Shown here: one piece after another, positions 7,455-35,310 of the stretch | How the letters are laid out: each line of letters starts with the position of its first letter | How positions within the stretch are numbered: the stretch's first letter is position 1 | Virus record (IMG/VR): IMGVR_UViG_3300021426_000001 | DNA: 64,000 bases | Reading direction: 5' to 3' (one strand) | Source of the DNA: a virus | Lineage: Duplodnaviria; Caudoviricetes | The notes under the pieces: model-generated | Seen by the model: only the letters and a program-made list of their open reading frames with translations | Told to the model about the DNA's origin: nothing | Databases searched by the model: none | Made by a program: the position numbers and the translations under genes

Positions 7455-7461
7455 AGTTTAT

Positions 7462-23321: not shown

Positions 23322-26300
23322 TTAGATTCTGGTCGTTGACTCCACCGGAGTGATCGACTGAGACTGTCTGTTGAGGATCAAAGTTACCTCGATTCTCTCG
23401 ATAGACTCAGTAGGAACGAAGCTGATGTTCACGTAGACCAAGTGAGTGTTCGTCGGATCTGGAATGACCTTCACGTCCTTGTCGAGAATTCCCTGACCTG
23501 ACATAATTCTGCCGAGGAATGCATCTACTGCCGTCTTCATCGCAGATCTGTTGGTCGTAGTGTTCTTCTGGTAGAGGAACGGAATGAGCTTCGTCTCGAG
23601 GTGCTTCTCGATGTAGTTGCAGAGCTTTCTGACATCGACACGGTTGAGAGCAGACTCCTTCTTGAGCATCGTCTTCTGACCCATGATTGCGTCGCCGTAG
23701 CCTGGGAAGTTGAGCGTGCTGTTGATGTGAATGTCGTAGAGCTGGCCGTACTCGTCATCGTCGAGACGTGTCATCGGACGATCAGAGTAAGCGATCCTTC
23801 CGTTTGTGACGCCTGCAGGTGCCATCCACGGCTTGTCGAAGTTGTCTACATAGCAGCATGCGGTAGCAGCAGCCACGGATCTCGGTAGCATAACGTATGT
23901 GCTCGTGAACGGATCGAAGTAGCGGTCGTAGTCGTCGTAAGCTGCGACATAAGAGCCATCACTGTAAGCAAATGTCTTACCCTCAGACAGCTTGAGACGG
24001 ATCGTCTTAGCTTCCTTAGAAGTTGCCTGGATGATTCCTAGGTCAAGCTTTCTAGAGATAGCGATCTGAGCGATTCTATCCTGCATTGCCTTGTACTTCT
24101 GCTTTCCAGAGAACGTCTCGATCGGCTCCACGTTGAACAGGTAGTCGAAGTAAGCCTTCTTTCTGTTCTTGTAGAGATCGAGAGCCTTCGTCTTCTCCTT
24201 CACGTTGTTAAGCTCAGAGTTTGTACCGCCAGTGAGCTGGTAGATGGAGAATGTCTGCTCTGGCATGCAGTACTCGCCCTTGTAGTTGACGGACTGCTCG
24301 ACAGACTTCTTTGAGACATAGATGAACTTAGACTTGCCGTTGATCACGTACGGTGCCCAGAGGCTGTTTCCGTTCTCGTCCTTTGCGTTCGGATCGTTTG
24401 ACACGAGCCATGACTCGACTGGAGACTGCATTAGAGCGTCCAGACCGAAGCCCCAGACTGCCTGAGTCTTAGAAGGTGCCTTCACGTAGACATTGATCTT
24501 GTAGACCTTCTTCCAAGTGAGGTTCTCCTTGTTACTCTTGTAGTCAAGACCTGCAGCGTCAACCTTGTCCTCGTCGTCATAGCGGTAGAGCCATGAGAAT
24601 CCGTTTTGTCCGTAGAGTGCTGGAATCTGAGCAGCAGCTGGCGTGATGATAGAGACTCCGACATCGTTTCCGAACTCGCCAGGACCGATAGCGCCGATGA
24701 TGAGCTGGTTAGTCTTGTTGGACTGGTACATCTCGATGTCGCCGTTGCCCGGCTCTGCGTCCGTCTCGCATCCAGGAGTGTAGCCGTCTTTCCAGATTCC
24801 AGTAGGATCTGAGAAGACTTCCGTAGAAGAGATAGCGATGAGCTTGTCGACTTCGTTGTCGCCGTCGAATTCAACCTGCCAAGGCTTCACGATGGATTCT
24901 GGATTCTCTGCTCCGTAGTGAGACTTGATCACTGGCTTCTTTGCGCCGTACTCAAGATACATAGCCCAAGTGTACTCATACTCGTTAGCAGCATGAACTC
25001 CAGTCTTGTAGAGGTCAGTGTCTACCACAGCGAGAACTTGGATCTGCTCAGTTCCATCTCCCTTAGCGAGAGTGTACTGGATGATTGCATAGTTTCCGTT
25101 TGAGATGTCTGCGACTTCAAGACCGTAGTCAGAAGCAACATCTCTGAGAAGAGCCTTCTGCTCAGTCGTTGTGCACTTGCTGCAAAGCGTTATCGTTACA
25201 GCGCCCTTCGTGATGACGTACTTGCTGTCAGCAGTTCCGTACTCAGTGAACTGAAGTCCCTTGACATCGTGTCTGCCGTTATCCCAGTCAGTCTTCGTGA
25301 TGACGAACGTCTTCGTGAGACCGTCATCCCAGTCAACTAGGTTCACCTGATAGACATCGAAGACTCCGTCAGTCGGAGTCGGCTTCAGATCCGTGACCTT
25401 GCTTACTGTGTTAGAGATGATGGTCTGGAGGCTCGTGGTCTCAGTAGTGATCTGTGTAGAATACAGGATCAAGTCAATTGATCTGTTGTTCAGCGATACG
25501 CTAGCAGGAATGTGAACGACCGTCTCGTAGTACTTAGTATCAGCGTTGCCAACGGTCTTCGTGATCGGAGTAGAGTTGAGATTCTGGAACCAGTAGAAGT
25601 CAGTCGTCTTAGAAGTCGTGGTCTTCTTGTTGATCGACTTGCTGTAGTCTGTGGTTGATACAGAGAAGAGTGCTGGATCGAGGTGAATTCCTGAAGCAGC
25701 ATCATCTGTCCAGACCTTACCAGCCTTTCCAGCGACAGACTCCAAAGAGCCACCAGAACGATCGCGGTAAACGTAGATCTCCTGGATCGGATTTCCGTTG
25801 AACTTTCTGTAGATGTCGTCGATCATGACGCTCTTAGACTTTCCGTGGTATGCGAAAGCGCTCTCATCTCCAGCCTTCTCATACGCTTCGAAACCGTCAT
25901 CAACTGCCTTGTTCGGATCGTAGTCATTCTTCGTCATGACCTGAATGAGTCTCAGATTGTTCAAGAGCTCGTTGTCAACGAAGCTGATCTTCTGAATACC
26001 GGTCATCGTCGTGATCGTCTGACCCTCGTGTTCTGGATCAGGAATTGATCTTGTGCCACCGATAATGTTCTTGTCGACTGAATCCGTGAACGGGAACTGA
26101 ATCTGAGCGTAGCCTTCATCACCCTGCGTAGCTCTCACGACGAGAAGCTGTGTAGCGCCGCCCTGTTCGAAGTAGACTTGAGCAGCGAAGTGACCATACT
26201 GGTTTGGATTGTCTGGAGTGCCGAAGAACTCGTGGAACTTGTCGATCGTTGTGCAGAGAACACGCTGGTTCGGAACGCCACGGTTAGCGTTTATCACAAT

Positions 26301-26396
26301 AGCGCCGATGCCGTCTCCAGGTTCAGCATTCGGTCTTACTGTGTTGTCGATTTCTTTGAAACCGATGCCAGGGACGTTGTAAGCCGTATTAGCCAT
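23322..26396 (-). CDS. Tail sheath protein (gp18-like) with large central insertion
   Basis: PGIGFKEID, PGEFGN, PWMAPAG, GQKT...ALNRVDVRKL, FVPTESIERI; late promoter 26448-26455. Confidence 0.95.
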   Translation of the reverse strand: MANTAYNVPGIGFKEIDNTVRPNAEPGDGIGAIVINANRGVPNQRVLCTTIDKFHEFFGTPDNPNQYGHFAAQVYFEQGGATQLLVVRATQGDEGYAQIQFPFTDSVDKNIIGGTRSIPDPEHEGQTITTMTGIQKISFVDNELLNNLRLIQVMTKNDYDPNKAVDDGFEAYEKAGDESAFAYHGKSKSVMIDDIYRKFNGNPIQEIYVYRDRSGGSLESVAGKAGKVWTDDAASGIHLDPALFSVSTTDYSKSINKKTTTSKTTDFYWFQNLNSTPITKTVGNADTKYYETVVHIPASVSLNNRSIDLILYSTQITTETTSLQTIISNTVSKVTDLKPTPTDGVFDVYQVNLVDWDDGLTKTFVITKTDWDNGRHDVKGLQFTEYGTADSKYVITKGAVTITLCSKCTTTEQKALLRDVASDYGLEVADISNGNYAIIQYTLAKGDGTEQIQVLAVVDTDLYKTGVHAANEYEYTWAMYLEYGAKKPVIKSHYGAENPESIVKPWQVEFDGDNEVDKLIAISSTEVFSDPTGIWKDGYTPGCETDAEPGNGDIEMYQSNKTNQLIIGAIGPGEFGNDVGVSIITPAAAQIPALYGQNGFSWLYRYDDEDKVDAAGLDYKSNKENLTWKKVYKINVYVKAPSKTQAVWGFGLDALMQSPVESWLVSNDPNAKDENGNSLWAPYVINGKSKFIYVSKKSVEQSVNYKGEYCMPEQTFSIYQLTGGTNSELNNVKEKTKALDLYKNRKKAYFDYLFNVEPIETFSGKQKYKAMQDRIAQIAISRKLDLGIIQATSKEAKTIRLKLSEGKTFAYSDGSYVAAYDDYDRYFDPFTSTYVMLPRSVAAATACCYVDNFDKPWMAPAGVTNGRIAYSDRPMTRLDDDEYGQLYDIHINSTLNFPGYGDAIMGQKTMLKKESALNRVDVRKLCNYIEKHLETKLIPFLYQKNTTTNRSAMKTAVDAFLGRIMSGQGILDKDVKVIPDPTNTHLVYVNISFVPTESIERIEVTLILNRQSQSITPVESTTRI

Positions 26397-26482
26397 GCTT
26401 AAAATCTCCTTAAATTTCGACGGGTACAACCCGTCTCTCGTTTAGATTATTTATACCGAGTTGTCAAGGAGATTAGTTGAGT

Positions 26483-28014: not shown

Positions 28015-31000
28015 CTATCTCAAGAACTTCCTCTTCGCCTTCGTCATCTTGTACTCGATGTAGTCCTTGCGAGAAGCAGACCAGCCGATGACCTCGAACA
28101 GAGCGTGGAACACGGACATGAAGAACTTCTCGAAGGTGGTGTCGTAGTCGACTGTGAAGATGTCGTCGAACTCCTTTGGCCATGTCTCGAAACCGATGAC
28201 TTCGAATCCGTACTTGTTGTTCGGATAGACGAAGAGATACTTCGCCTTCGAGCCTCTCTGGAGCGGATCTATCGGGAACTTGTTCTTCGCGGCGATGTAG
28301 TTGTGGTAGATGGCGATCTTGCAAGCCTGATGGGTGCCTGACGGAATGTTCAGTCCGTTCTGCACATACCAGTCCATTTCGTGGTCGAGGTATTTTCTCA
28401 CGTCTCCGACAGAGCGTGAAGCTGAGATGTCGTCCAGCTTGGCGTCCCTGAAGACAGAGTATGCATCTTGTATCTTGCGGATCGTCTCTTCCTTTGATGC
28501 GCCGAGAAGCACATCTGCTGTGATAGACACTGCCTTGTCCTGGCAGAACGGCGGGAACTCAGCCTTCTTGAGAACGAGGCCCTGAATCTTCAAGTGCTTG
28601 TGAGGGTCCTCTTCGTATCCGAAGAACTTTCCGTCCTTGTCGACGACTGAGCCGAGATAGAGCTTCTTGCCGTAAGAGATGAAGTTCGAGAACATGTTCT
28701 CACGGGTGAAGATGATTCGGTTAGTCATCTTGTTCTTCTCAGCCTTCATGTCTAGAATGACCTTCCAGAACCAGTTCATCTGCTTCTCCATGCAGTAGAA
28801 CCACTCCATGTCGTCCATGTACGGGAATAGTCCGATCTTGTGCTCGTCGAAGCAGTAGTAGTTGGAGTCCGTGTCCACCTGAACGACGACAGAGGCACGA
28901 TCTACGAAGCTAATCGGCTTCTCGATGACGTTCACGCAGTCGATTGCGTTTCCGTCAACCGTTGCGCCGCGAGCTAGGTCAAATCCAGTGACGGTCTGTC
29001 CCTCTGCGTTGGTGAAGCGTGCGCCGCCGTCAACGACTGAGATCTTCATCTTCATCGCAGTGTCGTTCAGAACGACCTCGATTGTCTCGTCGAGCTTGAA
29101 GAGATGGCACTCGCCCTTGTAGACCACGTTCACGAGCTTCTCAGTAGTGATCTTCTTGATAGGCTTGAGCGGCTCATGCTTGGTGAGGTCGTTGATGTAG
29201 AGGTCGATTGCAGCGCCATTTATCGTGTTCTTGGCGGTTATGTCGACGGCCTTGAGTTTACCCTGATCAGTCTCGACTTCGTCCTCCTGCTTGTACCATT
29301 TGCCGTTTATTCGGATGACTGGGAAGAACTTCATCGAGTCGCGAAGGATCTGCTCAGAGCGGTAGTATTTGTCCGTGTTGTCCTTGAGGTAGCGGATAGT
29401 GACACGAGCGCAGCGAGTGATCGAGCGAGCGCAGTCGATGTTGAAGAGGTGGAAGTTCTTGTACAGGCAAGCGCCGTATAGAGAGTTGATGAGCTTCTTA
29501 CGGGTTAGCTGAAGAGTGCGGTAGCGGTCAGCTGCGACAAGATCTCCCTTCTTCTCAGCGTCCTGCATGAGCAGCTTGAACTTGAGACGTTCGTCGAAGA
29601 TCTTTGACACGACAGACGGAAGAATTGCGTCGTCTGTGCGAAGGAATCCAACTCCGTTGACTTCTGAGCGGATAACGCGACCAGAGGCGATGTCCTCGGC
29701 GGTAGGCTTGATTACTCTCGTCTCAGGCGAGATGTTGTACATGATGATGTGGTTCGGGTAAGAAGAAGTGATGTCGCCCGACATGTTGTGCTGATAGCGG
29801 CCCGGATCTGCGTAGCAGTAGCCAGCCTTCACAGCGTATGGCTCGAACGAAGTCGGAGACTCGGGAGTGCAGTTCTGATACTCAATTATTCCGTTTCCGA
29901 GATCCTTCTTGAAGTAGCCCTCGTCGTGCCACCAGTCGGCTGGCTTCTCGTACATGTCGTTGTAGACCTGATCCTGCGCGTGAAGGAATCGCATGATGTA
30001 GCCGTCATGGGCAGAGGTCATCGCGAACACGTTGTCAAGGCATATCAGAGCTTCATTTGCGTAAGCGATCGTGGTCGGCCATAGACGCTTCTTAGCCTCG
30101 ATCTTGACCATCAGACGGACGTCCTGGACGTTATACTCGACGTAGGTCGTGTAGTCTTTGATGTAGTGCTCAGAGAGACCGTAGTCAAGCTTGACCTTTC
30201 CCTCTTTAACTTCCTTCTGACCGATGTAGTCGAGCTTCCAAGACGGAGAGTTCTTCACGAAGCCGATGAACTTGTACAGCTCCAGATAGTCCATCATGTA
30301 GAGGCCGGGAGAGCTGTAGTGGTAGCCCGTGATGATTCCGTTGTCGTCTGTGATTGGACGCTTCTGGACTGGCATCTTCAACGGCGACAGGAGACGAGTG
30401 AAGTCTCTCTTCTCGCCATGCTCTGCCTGAAGTCTGCGCATTCTGTTGATGATGTAGCTGTCATCGAACTTCTCTGAGTTCCAGCCAGTTAGCACGTCGA
30501 AGTGCTGCTGCCAGAACCAGATGTAGAAGTCCTTCATCATGTCGATCTCATTCTCGAACCATTTGTAGTTCGTGACTTCTGGAGAGTTGCCATTGTACGG
30601 CTCAAGACCCCAAGTGTAGGTCTGGTCGGTGACGGTGCTGTACACAGTGATCAGGTTGATGGGGTAGTTGGCGTCTTCTGGGTTCGGGAACTCTTGGTTG
30701 ATGAAGCAGCTGTCGTAGTAGCGCTTCCACTTGTTCTCTACGATGTCGAAAGCCTCGTACTTCTTCGTGTTTCCACGGTGCTCGAAGTCATAGATTGAGA
30801 TCGTCTCTTCATTCTCGGTGCCGAGAGGACGAACACGAATCTTCGTCTTCATCGGATAGCGTCTGGAGGTCTGTGTTTCAATATCGTAGAAGGCGATGCG
30901 GTAGTCCTTGTACTCTTCGTAGGTCAGCTCGGCCTTGTCATACTTCTCGTGGATGAACTTGACTGGCGCCTTCAGGTCCGACTCCGCCAAGCGCATCTTT

Positions 31001-31212
31001 TTCTTTAGGACCTTGTATGTCGCAAAGTCTTCCTTCGTATTGCACACCATCTGCTTCATCGGAACACCGAAGCAGTCACGGATCTTCGACTTCTTGTCTG
31101 GATCAGGCATGAAATACTTGAACACATAAGGGTACTTCTTGTACTCTAGGGAGCCCACCTCTCGCTCATAGATGGTGTTCGACTCTCTGTCATAAAACAC
31201 GTTCTTATACAT
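28015..31212 (-). CDS. Family B DNA polymerase (gp43-like) with two insertions
   Basis: ExoI DIET, ExoII GWNSEKFD, ExoIII YNVQD, motif A DITSSYP, motif B KKLINSLYG, motif C DTDS, and KKLY. Confidence 0.95.
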   Translation of the reverse strand: MYKNVFYDRESNTIYEREVGSLEYKKYPYVFKYFMPDPDKKSKIRDCFGVPMKQMVCNTKEDFATYKVLKKKMRLAESDLKAPVKFIHEKYDKAELTYEEYKDYRIAFYDIETQTSRRYPMKTKIRVRPLGTENEETISIYDFEHRGNTKKYEAFDIVENKWKRYYDSCFINQEFPNPEDANYPINLITVYSTVTDQTYTWGLEPYNGNSPEVTNYKWFENEIDMMKDFYIWFWQQHFDVLTGWNSEKFDDSYIINRMRRLQAEHGEKRDFTRLLSPLKMPVQKRPITDDNGIITGYHYSSPGLYMMDYLELYKFIGFVKNSPSWKLDYIGQKEVKEGKVKLDYGLSEHYIKDYTTYVEYNVQDVRLMVKIEAKKRLWPTTIAYANEALICLDNVFAMTSAHDGYIMRFLHAQDQVYNDMYEKPADWWHDEGYFKKDLGNGIIEYQNCTPESPTSFEPYAVKAGYCYADPGRYQHNMSGDITSSYPNHIIMYNISPETRVIKPTAEDIASGRVIRSEVNGVGFLRTDDAILPSVVSKIFDERLKFKLLMQDAEKKGDLVAADRYRTLQLTRKKLINSLYGACLYKNFHLFNIDCARSITRCARVTIRYLKDNTDKYYRSEQILRDSMKFFPVIRINGKWYKQEDEVETDQGKLKAVDITAKNTINGAAIDLYINDLTKHEPLKPIKKITTEKLVNVVYKGECHLFKLDETIEVVLNDTAMKMKISVVDGGARFTNAEGQTVTGFDLARGATVDGNAIDCVNVIEKPISFVDRASVVVQVDTDSNYYCFDEHKIGLFPYMDDMEWFYCMEKQMNWFWKVILDMKAEKNKMTNRIIFTRENMFSNFISYGKKLYLGSVVDKDGKFFGYEEDPHKHLKIQGLVLKKAEFPPFCQDKAVSITADVLLGASKEETIRKIQDAYSVFRDAKLDDISASRSVGDVRKYLDHEMDWYVQNGLNIPSGTHQACKIAIYHNYIAAKNKFPIDPLQRGSKAKYLFVYPNNKYGFEVIGFETWPKEFDDIFTVDYDTTFEKFFMSVFHALFEVIGWSASRKDYIEYKMTKAKRKFLR

Positions 31213-31281: not shown

Positions 31282-31304
31282 AATTTGAATTCTCTTGAGA
31301 GGTT

Positions 31305-31679
31305 TTAGACGTCTTTTACGAGTTTAGCTCCAAGGAAAGTGAAGTCGCAACAGCTAGGCGTGTTTTTGTCCTGCTTTCCAGTCTCAGCATATCGAATTAC
31401 AGCGTCTCTTAGCTCATCGATCGAAGTAAAGCCCTCGTCCTCGTAGCAGGATAGCATCTCATCATCGTCACCAGCTGCGTGTATAGCTTCCATAGCTTTC
31501 CAGTAAGCTTCAGCTGGAGTCTTTGCTGCGGAGTATGGTACCTCCTCTGTGCTCTCGGAATAGCCCTCGTCAGGATCCTCGTATCTTACGACCCAATACG
31601 GTTCGCTGGAGTTCTCTTTGACGATCTTGTAACCTGTGCTCTCCAGCAGTCTTCTCGCTTTCGAAAATTTCATTTTCAT
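31305..31679 (-). CDS. Late protein, probable head-internal protein
   Basis: Late promoter 31708-31715; N-terminal RRLLESTGYKIVKE motif shared with 58994..59410. Confidence 0.6.
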   Translation of the reverse strand: MKMKFSKARRLLESTGYKIVKENSSEPYWVVRYEDPDEGYSESTEEVPYSAAKTPAEAYWKAMEAIHAAGDDDEMLSCYEDEGFTSIDELRDAVIRYAETGKQDKNTPSCCDFTFLGAKLVKDV

Positions 31680-31716
31680 TTTGGAATTCTCCTATTTCCT
31701 TATAGCTTATTTATAC

Positions 31717-31746
31717 AAAAAGCTGACTGGGTTACAGTCAGCTTTC
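31717..31746. terminator. Bidirectional-type terminator
   Basis: AAAGCTGACTG/CAGTCAGCTTT stem. Confidence 0.7.
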
Positions 31747-31784
31747 TATATGAGTAGTCGATCAAAGAAACGGTGAGCTTCTTA

Positions 31785-32009
31785 TTAGATGCCCATATCC
31801 TTGATGAACTGGCGGAACTTCACGACTTCGTCAAGAGCGCCCTTTGCGTAAGCCTTCTCTTGTGCGAGTGCGGAGCCCTGGAGTCCCTCAGGGATCTTGT
31901 AGTTCTTGACTTCCTCGATCTCGATGTCGAGTCTCTGCTTGAGCTTTCTCACGGCCTGGATGATGAAGTCATTGCTGTCGATAGTTGCGTCTGTAGAGTT
32001 TGTGATCAT
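31785..32009 (-). CDS. Hypothetical protein
   Basis: RBS AAGGAG; GATAAATA at 32048-32055. Confidence 0.6.
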   Translation of the reverse strand: MITNSTDATIDSNDFIIQAVRKLKQRLDIEIEEVKNYKIPEGLQGSALAQEKAYAKGALDEVVKFRQFIKDMGI

Positions 32010-32086
32010 ATATGATGTTTCTCCTTGTAGAGTTTTAGAAATTTAGATATTTATCTGGATTTGGAAGTTCTCTGTAGTCAACTTCT

Positions 32087-32299
32087 CTAGTCGCAGAGGA
32101 GCTGCGGGCCTGAGGACTCCTTCAAGTAGTAAGTGACTTCCTCGCCAACGCTCTCGATCTTCTCGATCTCGAGGTTCATCGAAGAGAGCTTGTCCTGAAG
32201 TTTAGACGGGTTGATGATGTCGGCCTCACTGAGCGGTGCTGCGCCCTGATTTCTGACTCTTCCCGAAATTACGAATCGTGTCATAAATTGATTCTCCAT
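32087..32299 (-). CDS. Hypothetical protein
   Basis: GATAAATA at 32310-32317 upstream. Confidence 0.6.
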   Translation of the reverse strand: MENQFMTRFVISGRVRNQGAAPLSEADIINPSKLQDKLSSMNLEIEKIESVGEEVTYYLKESSGPQLLCD

Positions 32300-32419
32300 T
32301 TTTATTGTATATTTATCACATAGAACTAAGCTAAATCAGCTTTTGTAAAGATCTTTTTACATAAATCTTCGCAAAACGTTGAGAATTTAGAAGCTCGATT
32401 CAGTATATATATTTGGATC

Positions 32420-32516
32420 AAAAGATCAACTACTACTGGTCGAGAACAGGAGTTTTCAGATCCGCAAGGATCCAAAGATGACTTTCCGAGGTAGTAGGCG
32501 GGAAGTCATCTTTTTT
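32420..32516 (+). ncRNA. Putative ~95-nt small RNA ending in a strong terminator
   Basis: GATCC-GCAA-GGATC GNRA hairpin (32459-32472); 15-bp terminator stem 32474-32513 with T-tract; 5' CTACTACT is complementary to loop GGTAGTAG. Confidence 0.5.
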
Positions 32517-32545
32517 GTTTATCCAAGTTTACAAAACAAAACTGG

Positions 32546-32553
32546 TATAAATA
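32546..32553 (+). promoter_or_regulatory. Late promoter TATAAATA with no credible downstream gene
   Basis: Exact consensus followed by ~860 nt without a credible CDS. Confidence 0.7.
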
Positions 32554-32555
32554 AA

Positions 32556-33220
32556 GCAACCGCAAAAGATTATTAGATTTTGAATTAGATTAGAACTGAA
32601 TAGAACTGAATAAGACGATTTTTGAAGAAGAGCTTAAAAGCACTTGAAGTCACAATAAAGGTCACAATGTCGAGGAGTTCGCTCCAAAAGCATTTCGCAG
32701 GGCTCTTGCTAAACAGAACTGCGATTCTATGCAGGACACATAGTCTTAATAATTTTAGCCGCACAGAGAGAAAGGGCCGAGAGGCATCTGCAGGCTGTGC
32801 GCTGCTGGGGTGGACAGCTGGTCACCCGATGAAAAGTCACTCATCAATGGCCGATCTTGGTCAGAGGCAGCATGAATCCGGGCCGACGAACGAAGTCTAA
32901 GTTCACGGTCTAAATAGCTGAGAAGACGAACGAGATAAAGATCCAGGTGGATCTACGCGATCTCGTTCACATAGCCGTCGCGGCATTTTCGAGATGTAGC
33001 TGGTGTACAGGGCGACCGCATCATAAGCTCGAGAAGTAAGTCCCTAGTAAAGTCGATAGAGCGAGAGGCACACTGAAGATAGCAGGAGGCCCGAAAGGGA
33101 CGCAGGACTGTGATTCTTTGGGAGTCAGAAGTTCAGGAGATTGCTAGTTCCCCGTTTTACGGGCTAGTTGTCTCCTGAGCTCCTGGCTCCTGAAGAATCA
33201 CAGGAGACTTTCTCTCTCCC
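32556..33220 (+). ncRNA. Putative large structured non-coding RNA (~660 nt), family unrecognised
   Basis: Nested stems with + strand G-U wobbles, UUCG/GAGA/GAAA tetraloops, four-way junction 32801-32871, 96-nt hairpin 33108-33203, and 10-bp long-range pair 32765-32774/33208-33217. Confidence 0.7.
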
Positions 33221-33258
33221 AAAATGTCATCATGTCAACACAAAGTCATATCAAATTG

Positions 33259-33348
33259 GCTGTTCATAAGCTGTTCATAAGCTGTTAATAGATTGTTAAT
33301 AGATTGTTCATAAGCTGTTAATAAAATGTTAATAGATTGTTCATAAAA
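33259..33348. repeat. Eight tandem 11-bp units, each with a DnaA-box-like 9-mer TGTT(C/A)ATA(A/G)
   Basis: Units start at 33261, 33272, 33283, 33294, 33305, 33316, 33327 and 33338. Confidence 0.9.
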
Positions 33349-33415
33349 ATGAGGACCGTCTTCGTTAGAAGACGGATGAGCGAAGCGAATGGATGATAGC
33401 TGTGATAAATAGACT

Positions 33416-33733
33416 ATGAGACGAGACTTCACTCCTTATCTTCAACTCATTCTAGAGGGCAACGCTTCTGTTCCCTCGTCGCTCGTGCACGAGACTTCTG
33501 ATGTCCATCGTGAGACTCAATCTCAAGTTGAGATAGTCACTCAGAGAAAGCTGACTCCGCAAGAGAAGTTCCTTTCGATGAAGACAGTGAAGCGAGAGCC
33601 GTTGAAGTCTCCGACGATCACAGTAGCGACTTTCGAGTGGACTATGGACATTCCTCTCAGTCAGCTCCGTGAAGTAGCAGCGAGAGCTAACAGAGAGATG
33701 AGAGAAGCTATAAGAGAGCTGAGAAAATCTTGA
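33416..33733 (+). CDS. Hypothetical late protein
   Basis: GATAAATA at 33404-33411; N-terminal YLQLILE. Confidence 0.55.
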   Translation: MRRDFTPYLQLILEGNASVPSSLVHETSDVHRETQSQVEIVTQRKLTPQEKFLSMKTVKREPLKSPTITVATFEWTMDIPLSQLREVAARANREMREAIRELRKS

Positions 33734-33749
33734 TTTTTAGGGATTTTTA

Positions 33750-33781
33750 GGGTTTACAAGAGAAACCGAAATTCCTATATT
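33750..33781 (+). promoter_or_regulatory. Early promoter
   Basis: GGGTTTACA-N17-TATATT. Confidence 0.85.
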
Positions 33782-33823
33782 GATAGCGTAAAACAAATCA
33801 ACCTTCAACAAGGACCTATCAAT

Positions 33824-34123
33824 ATGAAGATCAAGACTTTCCAATTCCTTCTCTCCAACTTCTGCGGCAACGACCTCCACACTAACGGCTGCTTCAAAGA
33901 GAGCAAATACAAAGCTAATCAGAATACTCCGTACAGCAGCGAGAAGCAGATCGACCGAAAGCTGAATCGCTGGATCGAGAAGAACAATCCGATCATTCAC
34001 GACATCAAGATCACTACTTACACGATCGACCGCCACAACAACGGCGGAGACGACACTGTGGCTGCTATCTACACGATCACTTACGATCTTCCGGCTGGCG
34101 CAGAAGTCAAGGAGGAAGCATAA
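33824..34123 (+). CDS. Hypothetical early protein
   Basis: RBS AAGGA after early promoter. Confidence 0.7.
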   Translation: MKIKTFQFLLSNFCGNDLHTNGCFKESKYKANQNTPYSSEKQIDRKLNRWIEKNNPIIHDIKITTYTIDRHNNGGDDTVAAIYTITYDLPAGAEVKEEA

Positions 34124-34614
34124 TGAGTGTAAATGAGGGAATCATCTACGGAATCATCCTCAGCTTGATCCTCGTATGCATTGGAGGCGGGCTTCACAAG
34201 CTTGACGATCTCTACAACGACAGAGCTGCTCAGAAAGCTTCTCAGGTCATTCCAGAAGATCTGCGAAAGCTCCAGAAGCAAGAAGAGTCGCTCGGCGTCA
34301 CTCAGTGCAAGAAGATGCCTCGGGTGAGCAACCTAGAAGAGTCATGGGCGTGCACTGCTGAGCTGCCAGACGGAACTGTCAAGAAGATACTCTTCGATCA
34401 GTCCACTTTCGACGGAAGAGCGTGCTCAGTCACTATCGTCAAGCCCGACGAGTCTATCGAGAAGCGCGCATACAGCGGAGACGGTCTCCACGTGAAGCGA
34501 AAGACCGTCATCGAGGATGTCAAGACTCGAAAGAAGACCAAGGGAGAGACCGTGGAAGAGCTAGATCCATCAACGTGCCTGTACTTCTTCCAGCAAGTCA
34601 AGCTCGCTATGTGA
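34123..34614 (+). CDS. Membrane-anchored hypothetical protein
   Basis: N-terminal hydrophobic helix GIIYGIILSLILVCIGG. Confidence 0.65.
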   Translation: MSVNEGIIYGIILSLILVCIGGGLHKLDDLYNDRAAQKASQVIPEDLRKLQKQEESLGVTQCKKMPRVSNLEESWACTAELPDGTVKKILFDQSTFDGRACSVTIVKPDESIEKRAYSGDGLHVKRKTVIEDVKTRKKTKGETVEELDPSTCLYFFQQVKLAM

Positions 34615-34620
34615 TCCCTG

Positions 34621-35310
34621 CTATGTTACTTGGAAGAATCCCTGAGGATCGAACTTCACTTCGTACTTAGTGCAGGGCATCAGAGACTCGAAGTCAATGA
34701 ATCCGATCGGGTAGATGGTCTCTACCCCTTCGTGTTGTTTCTGTACTCCAATCAAGCATCCGTTAGCGACAGACAGAGAAGATCCAGAGTACGTGATGTT
34801 CTCGGCTCTGACTCCAGGAGCATCTCCGTTCAGGAAGGTTAGCGGCACATGGTACATGTCGTACTCGGCTTCGTCGAAGTTTCTCTTGAACGGCATGTAG
34901 CCTCTCAGAGCTTCGACTGGATTCTCAGAAGGCTCTCTGTTGCTGTTCAGCTCGGCGTTGTAGTTCGCCTTCTTCACGAACGAGTCTATGTAAGTAGACT
35001 TGCTTAGATTCTCTTTCATCGGAATGTTGAAGACTTCCTCGTATGTCTTGTCCGTCTCGTTGTACAGTCCGTTCGAGTCACAGACCCACGGCCTAGCGTC
35101 CATTCTCGATGACGGGTATGTGAACTTAGAGTCGGATACGAACAGGCCAGAGACGCCCTCTAGGCCGATTCCAGGGAAGTCGTCTGACGGCTTGAAAGTG
35201 TCCCAGTCTCCAGAGGTCGTGAGGTACGCGTGAAGATCATCGTACGTGTCCGACTTTCCCTCTCGGCTGAAGAGATAGTCTATGAACTGCGGATATGCTT
35301 TGTATTTCAC
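34621..35310 (-). CDS. Virion/tail-associated protein
   Basis: C-terminal IYPIGFIDF...VKFDPQGFFQV; in an operon with the large adhesin. Confidence 0.5.
   Translation of the reverse strand: MKYKAYPQFIDYLFSREGKSDTYDDLHAYLTTSGDWDTFKPSDDFPGIGLEGVSGLFVSDSKFTYPSSRMDARPWVCDSNGLYNETDKTYEEVFNIPMKENLSKSTYIDSFVKKANYNAELNSNREPSENPVEALRGYMPFKRNFDEAEYDMYHVPLTFLNGDAPGVRAENITYSGSSLSVANGCLIGVQKQHEGVETIYPIGFIDFESLMPCTKYEVKFDPQGFFQVT

Follow-up and report, generated by a model that had tools for sequence, protein, structure and literature searches.

The stretch analyzed here is a 64,000-nucleotide window from the IMG/VR virus record IMGVR_UViG_3300021426_000001 (Duplodnaviria; Caudoviricetes), a densely coding phage genome with a 1.1-kb gap, poor in open reading frames (ORFs), between two divergent gene blocks (positions 32300 to 33415). 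The gap harbors the subject of this report, a highly structured plus-strand RNA whose center belongs to the cow-rumen-2 motif. Nearby genes on the minus strand encode a tail sheath protein (PHROG 23; 23322 to 26429) and a family B DNA polymerase (PolB; 28015 to 31212). PolB is 27 to 28% identical to the polymerase of T4-like cyanomyoviruses, the protein called gp43 in T4, and recurs at 76 to 77% identity on IMG/VR contigs of 63 to 248 kb. The phage hosting the RNA is a large myovirus, T4-like and from the ruminant gut. A blastn search of the gap and of one typical family member against 50,697 records of cultured phages gave no match, and the labels of metagenome-assembled genomes (MAGs) pointed to contradictory hosts (Bacilli, Prevotella, Methanobrevibacter, Succinivibrionaceae, and others).

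A preliminary description of the window had proposed that positions 32556 to 33220 encode a noncoding, highly structured plus-strand phage RNA located behind a late promoter and belonging to no recognized family. Except for the family, this outline was supported. The only sizeable ORF, 32622 to 32900, is broken by a 1-nt insertion after position 32752 in L104, a 96%-identical copy of the window locus, and in three metatranscriptome runs; therefore, the locus is noncoding.

Fold, strand, and the cow-rumen-2 core

All the pairings of the preliminary description were found in the sequence at the positions given for them. The minimum free energy (MFE) fold of the plus strand of 32556 to 33220 had an energy of -234.7 kcal/mol, compared to -194.9 ± 6.9 kcal/mol for dinucleotide shuffles (z = -5.78), whereas the minus strand reached -200.5 kcal/mol with a z of -2.2. 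The plus-strand fold contains the GGAG-UUCG-CUCC hairpin, the junction domain at 32801 to 32871, the GAACGAGAU/AUCUCGUUC helix, the long hairpin, and the closing helix. An inverted repeat with 40-nt arms (33108 to 33147 and 33164 to 33203) is 80% complementary. The perfect 10-bp long-range pairing that had been described is likewise an inverted repeat and overlaps helix P1 (described below) by 2 nt; the predicted helix would probably close the RNA and mark its 3' boundary (Table 1). The assignment to the plus strand thus stands, based on the folding energy, the G-U pairs, the promoter direction, and the co-orientation with transfer RNA (tRNA) arrays; at one P1 position, U-G is the commonest pair in the family (26 of 36 sequences).

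The cow-rumen-2 motif (RF02947), a 106-nt element among 224 candidate RNAs (Weinberg et al. 2017, PMC5737381) that is listed in Rfam 15 (PMC11701678), was aligned to positions 32934 to 33048 over model positions 1 to 106, with 58.9 bits and an E value of 5e-10 in a sensitive-mode search of the 1.4 kb from 32200 to 33600. At the curated Rfam thresholds, no match was obtained anywhere in the window. As seen in the alignment, AUAGCCG, GAUGUAGC, ACAGG..GACC, UAAGC, and GUAAGUCC are all kept and noncanonical pairs are few. An nhmmer profile built from 42 cluster representatives, the window being excluded, matched 32941 to 33050 (E = 7.6e-16), its single copy in the window. Two loci syntenic with the window beside PolB, L009 and L010, carry copies with 88 and 73 bits to RF02947, above the cut-off, lying upstream of the polymerase gene in divergent orientation as in the window. 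An intermediate copy, L126b, reaches 74.4 bits, is 71.5% identical to the window over 32801 to 33056 in a 260-nt match, and has flanking domains in common with it. The syntenic copies, the window-free profile, and the intermediate copy indicate that the core match reflects homology and not chance. The RNA is therefore not of an unrecognized family: the 115 nt at its center represent cow-rumen-2 in a diverged form that scores below the threshold. A search against Rfam had been named beforehand as the test of novelty, and the match removes full novelty: the core family is already in Rfam, but about four-fifths of the structured RNA is uncatalogued. The first hairpin of the core, GAACGAGAU/AUCUCGUUC (32928 to 32968), was also among the pairings proposed earlier and is supported by the comparison of homologues.

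The other Rfam families gave only weak chance matches of microRNA or small nucleolar RNA type in 32200 to 33600 up to an E value of 10, with no ROOL, GOLLD, ribonuclease P (RNase P) RNA, transfer-messenger RNA (tmRNA), signal recognition particle (SRP) RNA, or 6S RNA among them. The ROOL and GOLLD covariance models were also unmatched in 18 homologous loci, where the Rfam search (E values up to 0.1 or 0.001) otherwise returned tRNAs, weak chance matches, and a single group I intron scoring below the threshold. ARAGORN found no tmRNA or tRNA in the window.

Domain architecture in the family and in the window

Homologues were collected with a degenerate core pattern, which retrieved 40 viral, 100 metagenome, and 15 MAG contigs. 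The metagenome contigs are mostly Ga-numbered assemblies of the Joint Genome Institute, with numbers that recur among the IMG/VR rumen contigs, and many of the 15 MAG contigs came from goat and sheep gut. Clustering at 93% identity gave 46 clusters, 43 of them true and three (L062, L125, and L129) chance pattern matches. The group I intron match lies on one of these contigs retrieved by chance (L062:5854-6109, minus strand; 39 bits with a cut-off of 50, E = 1.8e-6).

A typical family member spans approximately 300 to 340 nt, and sequence beyond the 106-nt core is conserved in register across the family. Located 152 to 230 nt upstream of the core, a 5' domain is formed by helix P1 and hairpin P2, whose loop, CAAYYCAAUG, was found in 39 of the 43 cluster representatives. 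In an alignment of 37 sequences, 88% of P1/P2 was paired, and both partners varied in nine of the ten P1 pairs. The covariation score was 0.40 versus 0.13 in shuffles, none of 500 reaching it, and at most 0.11 when the partners were slid. The family also exhibits a 3' hairpin with the apex CCU-N-AGGCU followed by GUCUC, the GGCU lying 86 to 164 nt downstream of the core. Since these 5' and 3' domains are conserved in the family, the Rfam model covers only the center of the RNA. In 28 of 39 clusters, P1 is preceded within 70 nt by a -10-like TATAWT box. In most phages, the RNA of this family runs from the P1/P2 domain at its 5' end through variable hairpins and the cow-rumen-2 core to the hairpin at its 3' end.

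We also observed that in compact members, such as L018:2498-2600, the 3' hairpin lies between two same-sense copies of the motif UUAYRCCAAAAG. Two alternative folds are suggested for L029-type RNAs, in which the 5' strand of the hairpin could be paired with the upstream instead of the downstream copy. A pseudoknot joining the GGAR of the P1/P2 junction to the UUCC of the 3' hairpin loop was considered and rejected, several clusters having AACC or UACC without a compensating change.

The window lineage retains the core together with P1 and a 3' hairpin lengthened to 96 nt, and adds a 5' accessory domain and a three-hairpin junction (Table 1). The conserved fold comprises approximately 560 nt, from 32667 to 33217, behind a variable leader. 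Homologues with the 5' domains of the window are L104 and L126b only, and a pattern specific to the junction domain matched no viral contig. The window, L126b, and L104 have 76 consensus pairs in common, 11 of which are changed on both sides.

Table 1. Features of the RNA locus, with positions in the window
Feature	Positions	Strand	Details and basis
Sigma-70-like promoter	32386 to 32413	+	TTTAGA, 16-nt spacer, TATATT; consensus scan
Leader hairpins	32421 to 32516	+	Include terminator-like hairpin 32474 to 32513 followed by T run; inverted repeat; crossed by RNA contigs
T4-type late promoter	32546 to 32553	+	TATAAATA; same motif precedes the RNA in L029
A-rich leader with short repeats	32556 to 32660	+	Variable between strains; weak similarity to L126b
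5' accessory domain	32667 to 32745	+	Hairpin GGAG-UUCG-CUCC, 32674 to 32685; helix CGCAG/CUGCG, 32696 to 32700 with 32719 to 32723
P1 enclosing reduced P2	32757 to 32803	+	P1 (AGC + GCACAG / CUGUGC + GCU), 32757 to 32766 with 32795 to 32803; P2 GCC-GAGA-GGC, 32776 to 32785
Junction domain, three hairpins	32804 to 32871	+	Closed by GCUG/CAGC; folds and comparison with L126b
Hairpin GGGCCG/CGGUCU	32880 to 32911	+	Inner stem GAAC/GUUC; comparison with L126b
Core, diverged cow-rumen-2 element	32928 to 33048	+	First hairpin 32928 to 32968; blocks AUAGCCG, GAUGUAGC, UACAGG..GACCG, UAAGC, GUAAGUCC
Linker	33049 to 33107	+	Conserved AAAGUCGA, 33050 to 33057; hairpin CCC-GAAA-GGG, 33090 to 33099
3' hairpin, 96 nt	33108 to 33203	+	Apex GGAGA 33136 to 33140, GGCU 33162 to 33165, GUCUCC 33170 to 33175
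3' strand of 10-bp long-range helix	33208 to 33217	+	CUUUCUCUCU, pairs with 32765 to 32774; 100% complementary; in MFE fold

Most of the helices proposed in the preliminary description were borne out by natural variation. The 5' accessory domain is a conserved block with consensus pairs which, apart from the window lineage, occurs only in L126b. In its GGAG/CUCC hairpin, variant RNA contigs carry A32676>C together with T32683>G, a compensatory change. A32699>G, elsewhere in the accessory domain of this variant, results in a G-U pair. The GCACAG/CUGUGC helix, extended by AGC/GCU, corresponds to P1, with four pairs changed on both sides relative to L126b; P1 and the reduced P2 of the window are the homologue of the family's 5' P1/P2 domain. 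The four-way junction at 32801 to 32871 is likewise upheld by the comparison with L126b, which includes a compensatory U-A to C-G change in GGGUGG/CCACCC and G-U/G-C exchanges. In the hairpin at 32880 to 32911, the inner stem is GAGC/GCUC in L126b, also a compensatory change.

Toward the 3' end, GUCGA recurs at the linker position across the family, and the CCC-GAAA-GGG hairpin was seen in the window's own fold only. The pairing of the 96-nt hairpin, also predicted earlier, is kept across homologues: nine fold here as hairpins, six or seven of them 67 to 92 nt long with different stem sequences. In the alignment of this region, 84% of the cells pair, compared to at most 53% with the partners slid, and 12 pairs are changed on both sides. 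The apex of this hairpin is the family's conserved 3' hairpin, and its outer stem is a lineage-specific extension.

The 5' end departs from what had been proposed, namely, a domain closed by a long helix. The pairing is present in the sequence, but its AU-rich portion (32566 to 32575 with 32747 to 32756) is hit by uncompensated natural changes. L104 and three RNA runs carry U32750>C and the 1-nt insertion after 32752, whereas no compensating change at the partner A32672 is among the differences listed. Instead of belonging to a closed 5' domain, 32556 to 32660 behaves as a variable, repeat-rich leader, in which variant RNA contigs have small indels, including a 22-nt deletion at 32581, and which probably lies outside the conserved fold.

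Transcription and genomic distribution

The T4 late-promoter motif, TATAAATA, occurs 16 times in the window, compared to 0.34 expected, mostly just upstream of ORF starts and on the matching strand (e.g., at 7459, 26448, 28004, 31708, 32546, and 44568). The copy at 32546 points into the RNA, in agreement with the promoter reported at this position. A late-promoter system of T4 type was thus observed in a phage whose polymerase is only 27 to 28% identical to that of cultured T4-like phages.

Six metatranscriptome runs contain part of the stretch, and the contigs of four runs from four studies (X15 to X18) were compared with 31300 to 34700. Together, the RNA contigs of these four studies cover 32447 to 33140. 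Run X15, whose sample may be the source of the window, gave two contigs at 100% identity (32499 to 32675 and 32704 to 33099), and X16 gave 32447 to 32580 and 32630 to 32975. In X17, a single 699-nt contig with a depth of 110 covers 32511 to 33140; three neighboring contigs have depths of 6 to 31, and one (31764 to 31983) has a depth of 105. A 631-nt contig of X18 covers 32511 to 33081. No contig lies over 32254 to 32446 in any of the four runs or over 33141 to 33700 in three of them, which is a weak hint and not proof of silence.

The start of the RNA had been placed at the late promoter. This promoter is present, but the RNA contigs begin upstream of it, at 32447 to 32511, with loose ends to approximately 32436; those of X17 and X18 begin at 32511 with loose ends of 62 to 75 nt further upstream. 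In addition, X16 32447-32580 and X15 32499-32675 cross the terminator-like hairpin, which is therefore read through, at least partly. Since contigs begin upstream of TATAAATA and cross this hairpin, some transcripts probably start at the sigma-70-like promoter at 32386 to 32413, a probable early start. Transcription from there would continue across the leaky terminator hairpin, with the late promoter at 32546 contributing late expression. A similar hairpin with a T run was also seen upstream of the RNA in L029, L015, and L126a.

A second segment with deep RNA was observed at 31764 to 32012, close to the RNA's own depth (105 in X17 and 7.4 in X18). It has loose ends like terminator hairpins, overlaps two small ORFs (31785 to 32009, minus strand, and 31773 to 32015, plus strand), and sits at the position of "RNA a" in L126 and L009 (see below), without a cow-rumen-2 signal.

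In the genomes of the family, the RNA was found directly 3' of a phage tRNA array, on the same strand in 14 of 14 such cases, all of one lineage; elsewhere, it lies in at least eight gene contexts. A universal neighboring protein partner was rejected, as none was shared across lineages among the flanking ORFs of the 46 clusters. Four copies of the RNA are present on one 415-kb contig. Where PolB is syntenic (76 to 77% identity), it is followed by RNA a, an ORF 32087 homologue, RNA b, a repeat array, and an ORF 34621 homologue, each of the two RNAs being present or absent. Only RNA b occurs in the window, only RNA a in L009, both in L126, and neither in L005 to L008. The RNA thus behaves as a mobile accessory gene, with 0 to 2 copies at this locus and up to 4 in the 415-kb phage. 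In L126 (8385 to 10700), the two copies are diverged paralogues of 78.8 and 74.4 bits, 1.5 kb apart with two small minus-strand ORFs between them. At its 5' end, the first copy is extended by 150 conserved nt of its own, which L029 and L015 also have, with compensatory changes among them.

The RNA is followed after 30 nt by seven 11-nt direct repeats (33243 to 33352) with the units CTGTTCATAAG and ATTGTTAATAG, and L104 has three extra units. L126b is followed by an analogous array of a different unit, ACATGAGCGTC, in about four copies, whereas L147, with another RNA subtype, has the unit of the window after its RNA. The repeats resemble an array of iterons or regulator-binding sites linked to the RNA locus. 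We also observed a hairpin at 33349 to 33378, GACCGTCTTC..GAAGACGGA, with a compensatory C>T and G>A change in L104; on the minus strand it scores as a terminator, a stem followed by a T run.

Interpretation and comparison with known large RNAs

Very probably, the region is the gene for a stable, structured, noncoding plus-strand phage RNA that is a diverged and expanded member of the cow-rumen-2 family. From the pattern of conservation and the genomic ecology, the RNA may act in trans as an accessory RNA of infection. In its ecology, it falls in with ROOL and GOLLD, being borne by phages, located in some cases at the end of tRNA arrays, found in several copies per genome, and variably present among close relatives. 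A partner-binding or active center is suggested by the fact that near-invariant internal-loop nucleotides lie inside freely covarying helices. The core nucleotides AGCCGCC, GAUGUAGC, UACAGGAUGACCG, UAAGC, and GUAAGUCC would form a binding site for a conserved partner, with the freely varying peripheral helices as a scaffold; this partner would most plausibly be a part of the tRNA/translation machinery or a phage protein.

Several observations weigh against this interpretation. The specifics of a trans-acting mechanism, derived from conservation and ecology, are tentative and themselves doubtful. The core scores 58.9 bits, below the gathering cut-off of 66 for RF02947, and the window lacks the family's P2 loop CAAYYCAAUG, having GCC-GAGA-GGC instead. 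The 5' accessory and junction domains have L126b as their sole diverged homologue, so that their covariation rests on two lineages. The tRNA linkage holds for 14 of 158 copies only. The RNA contigs are strandless, and DNA carry-over in RNA libraries is possible. Furthermore, none of the contigs crosses the whole long hairpin or reaches 33208 to 33217, and no terminator follows; the contig ends in or before this hairpin fit either an assembly break at the inverted repeat or processing.

Processing is central to one alternative, which we regard as rather unlikely, in which the transcript yields separate RNAs, the cow-rumen-2-type RNA (approximately 32757 to 33217) standing alone and 32667 to 32745 and 32421 to 32516 being independent small RNAs or leader debris. 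Most members do start at P1, about 20 nt past their own promoter-like box and without a 5' accessory domain. Moreover, the leader at 32556 to 32660 varies between strains, the helix tying it to the body is disrupted in variants, and low-depth runs give split contigs, such as the two of X15. Nevertheless, single contigs from two studies bridge 32511 to 33081 and 33140, L126b likewise keeps the accessory domain directly upstream of P1, and contig breaks at a depth of 2 to 4 say little. A cis-acting leader for downstream same-strand genes, as a processive antiterminator or regulatory 5' region, is unlikely. The downstream genes differ among at least eight contexts with none universal, the next gene is on the opposite strand in the tRNA-array lineage, and the next ORFs of the window have their own promoter at 33753 to 33781. 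The X17 RNA contig is also about 10 times deeper than the downstream contigs, contig depth being a weak measure. These observations stand against the many lineages in which the RNA is flanked by co-directional genes and followed by no terminator, the lack of a plus-strand terminator after the window RNA, and the TATAAATA late promoter of the next gene found within 160 nt after the RNA in 14 of 43 clusters.

The repeats following the RNA raise the possibility of a replication origin, with the structured transcript as an origin or primer RNA beside an 11-bp iteron array near the polymerase gene. R-loop type origin or primer RNAs are known at T4 oriE and ColE1. The array 30 nt past the RNA with its additional units in L104, the analogous array after L126b, the recurrence of the window's unit after another RNA subtype in L147, and the position between divergent transcription units near PolB are all consistent with this idea. 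We nevertheless consider it very unlikely, because most members lie elsewhere in their genomes with no tandem repeats visible in the downstream sequence shown, up to four RNA copies occur per genome, and strong internal-loop conservation with covarying helices would be unexpected of a mere primer transcript. Extremely improbable is an unrecognized diverged ROOL, GOLLD, RNase P RNA, tmRNA, SRP RNA, or 6S RNA. The RNA is like ROOL and GOLLD in its size, its origin in phages, its rumen habitat, and its occasional linkage to tRNA arrays, and short blocks recognized by eye look like conserved blocks of RNase P RNA. However, only cow-rumen-2 matches beyond chance up to an E value of 10, and the same holds, tRNAs aside, in the 18 further loci. 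The RNase P-like blocks were rejected, as no model matched and their helices and order misfit the P4 helix. A mimic of the ribosomal sarcin-ricin loop, suggested by AGUAC..GACC, was also discarded, since it would lack the GAGA tetraloop and have a different register.

Large and intricate RNAs of bacteria and phages are rare (ribosomal RNA, RNase P, group I and II introns, OLE, ROOL, and GOLLD), and each revealed unusual biochemistry or architecture. Regarding the RNA as an expanded cow-rumen-2 family member, a motif filed as a 106-nt small RNA is the conserved center of a 300- to 340-nt RNA of uncultured ruminant-gut phages, which one phage lineage has enlarged to approximately 560 to 660 nt and which is represented in ruminant metatranscriptome contigs of four independent studies. 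These results provide the basis for a corrected, longer Rfam model, and the compact and expanded forms are defined constructs for structural biology. They also add a case to the question of how large phage RNAs encoded near tRNA arrays function. The position of the 14 array-linked copies, at the 3' end of a tRNA array, is also that of the T4 stable RNAs C and D, which are small, lie at the 3' end of the tRNA gene cluster, and are co-transcribed with it.

Compared to the catalogued cow-rumen-2 motif, the window RNA shares all 106 model positions, the conserved blocks, the helices, and the ruminant gut metagenome habitat, but has an enlarged first hairpin and a score below the cut-off. The motif represents about one-third of a typical full-length RNA and one-fifth to one-sixth of the window RNA. 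The main text of PMC5737381 and the Rfam 15 paper make no mention of the full architecture with its 5' P1/P2 and 3' hairpin domains, the phage origin, the expression, or the 560- to 660-nt form, and in full-text searches only Rfam papers named the motif.

A likeness to ROOL and GOLLD had been noted in the preliminary description; it stands in that the RNA is large and ornate, but neither Rfam model matched even at an E value of 10. ROOL RNA (RF03087) has approximately 580 nt and forms a homo-octameric nanocage (bioRxiv 10.1101/2024.12.08.627333). Like the window RNA, ROOL is large, ornate, first detected in cow rumen data, and borne by phages or prophages, often near tRNA genes; in contrast, it has no sequence or structure match and another conserved core, and tRNA linkage occurs here in one lineage only. 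GOLLD (RF01998) exceeds 800 nt and assembles into a homo-14-mer nanocage, whereas the window RNA is smaller. Both GOLLD and the cow-rumen-2-type RNAs are phage-borne and lie beside tRNA arrays, GOLLD often so. It is conceivable, if rather improbable, that cow-rumen-2-type RNAs join ROOL and GOLLD as a third class of ornate, large RNAs in phages, in which the invariant core would be the active or partner-binding center (e.g., for tRNA or the ribosome during takeover) and the lineage-specific peripheral domains, approximately 560 to 800 nt in the window, would drive RNA-only assembly. GOLLD has one universally conserved region and a 5' region of lower conservation, which parallels the conserved core and 3' hairpin and the variable 5' portion found here. 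The likeness to ROOL and GOLLD is ecological only, consisting of a phage-borne, rumen-dwelling RNA with occasional tRNA linkage and a variable 5' and conserved 3' portion.

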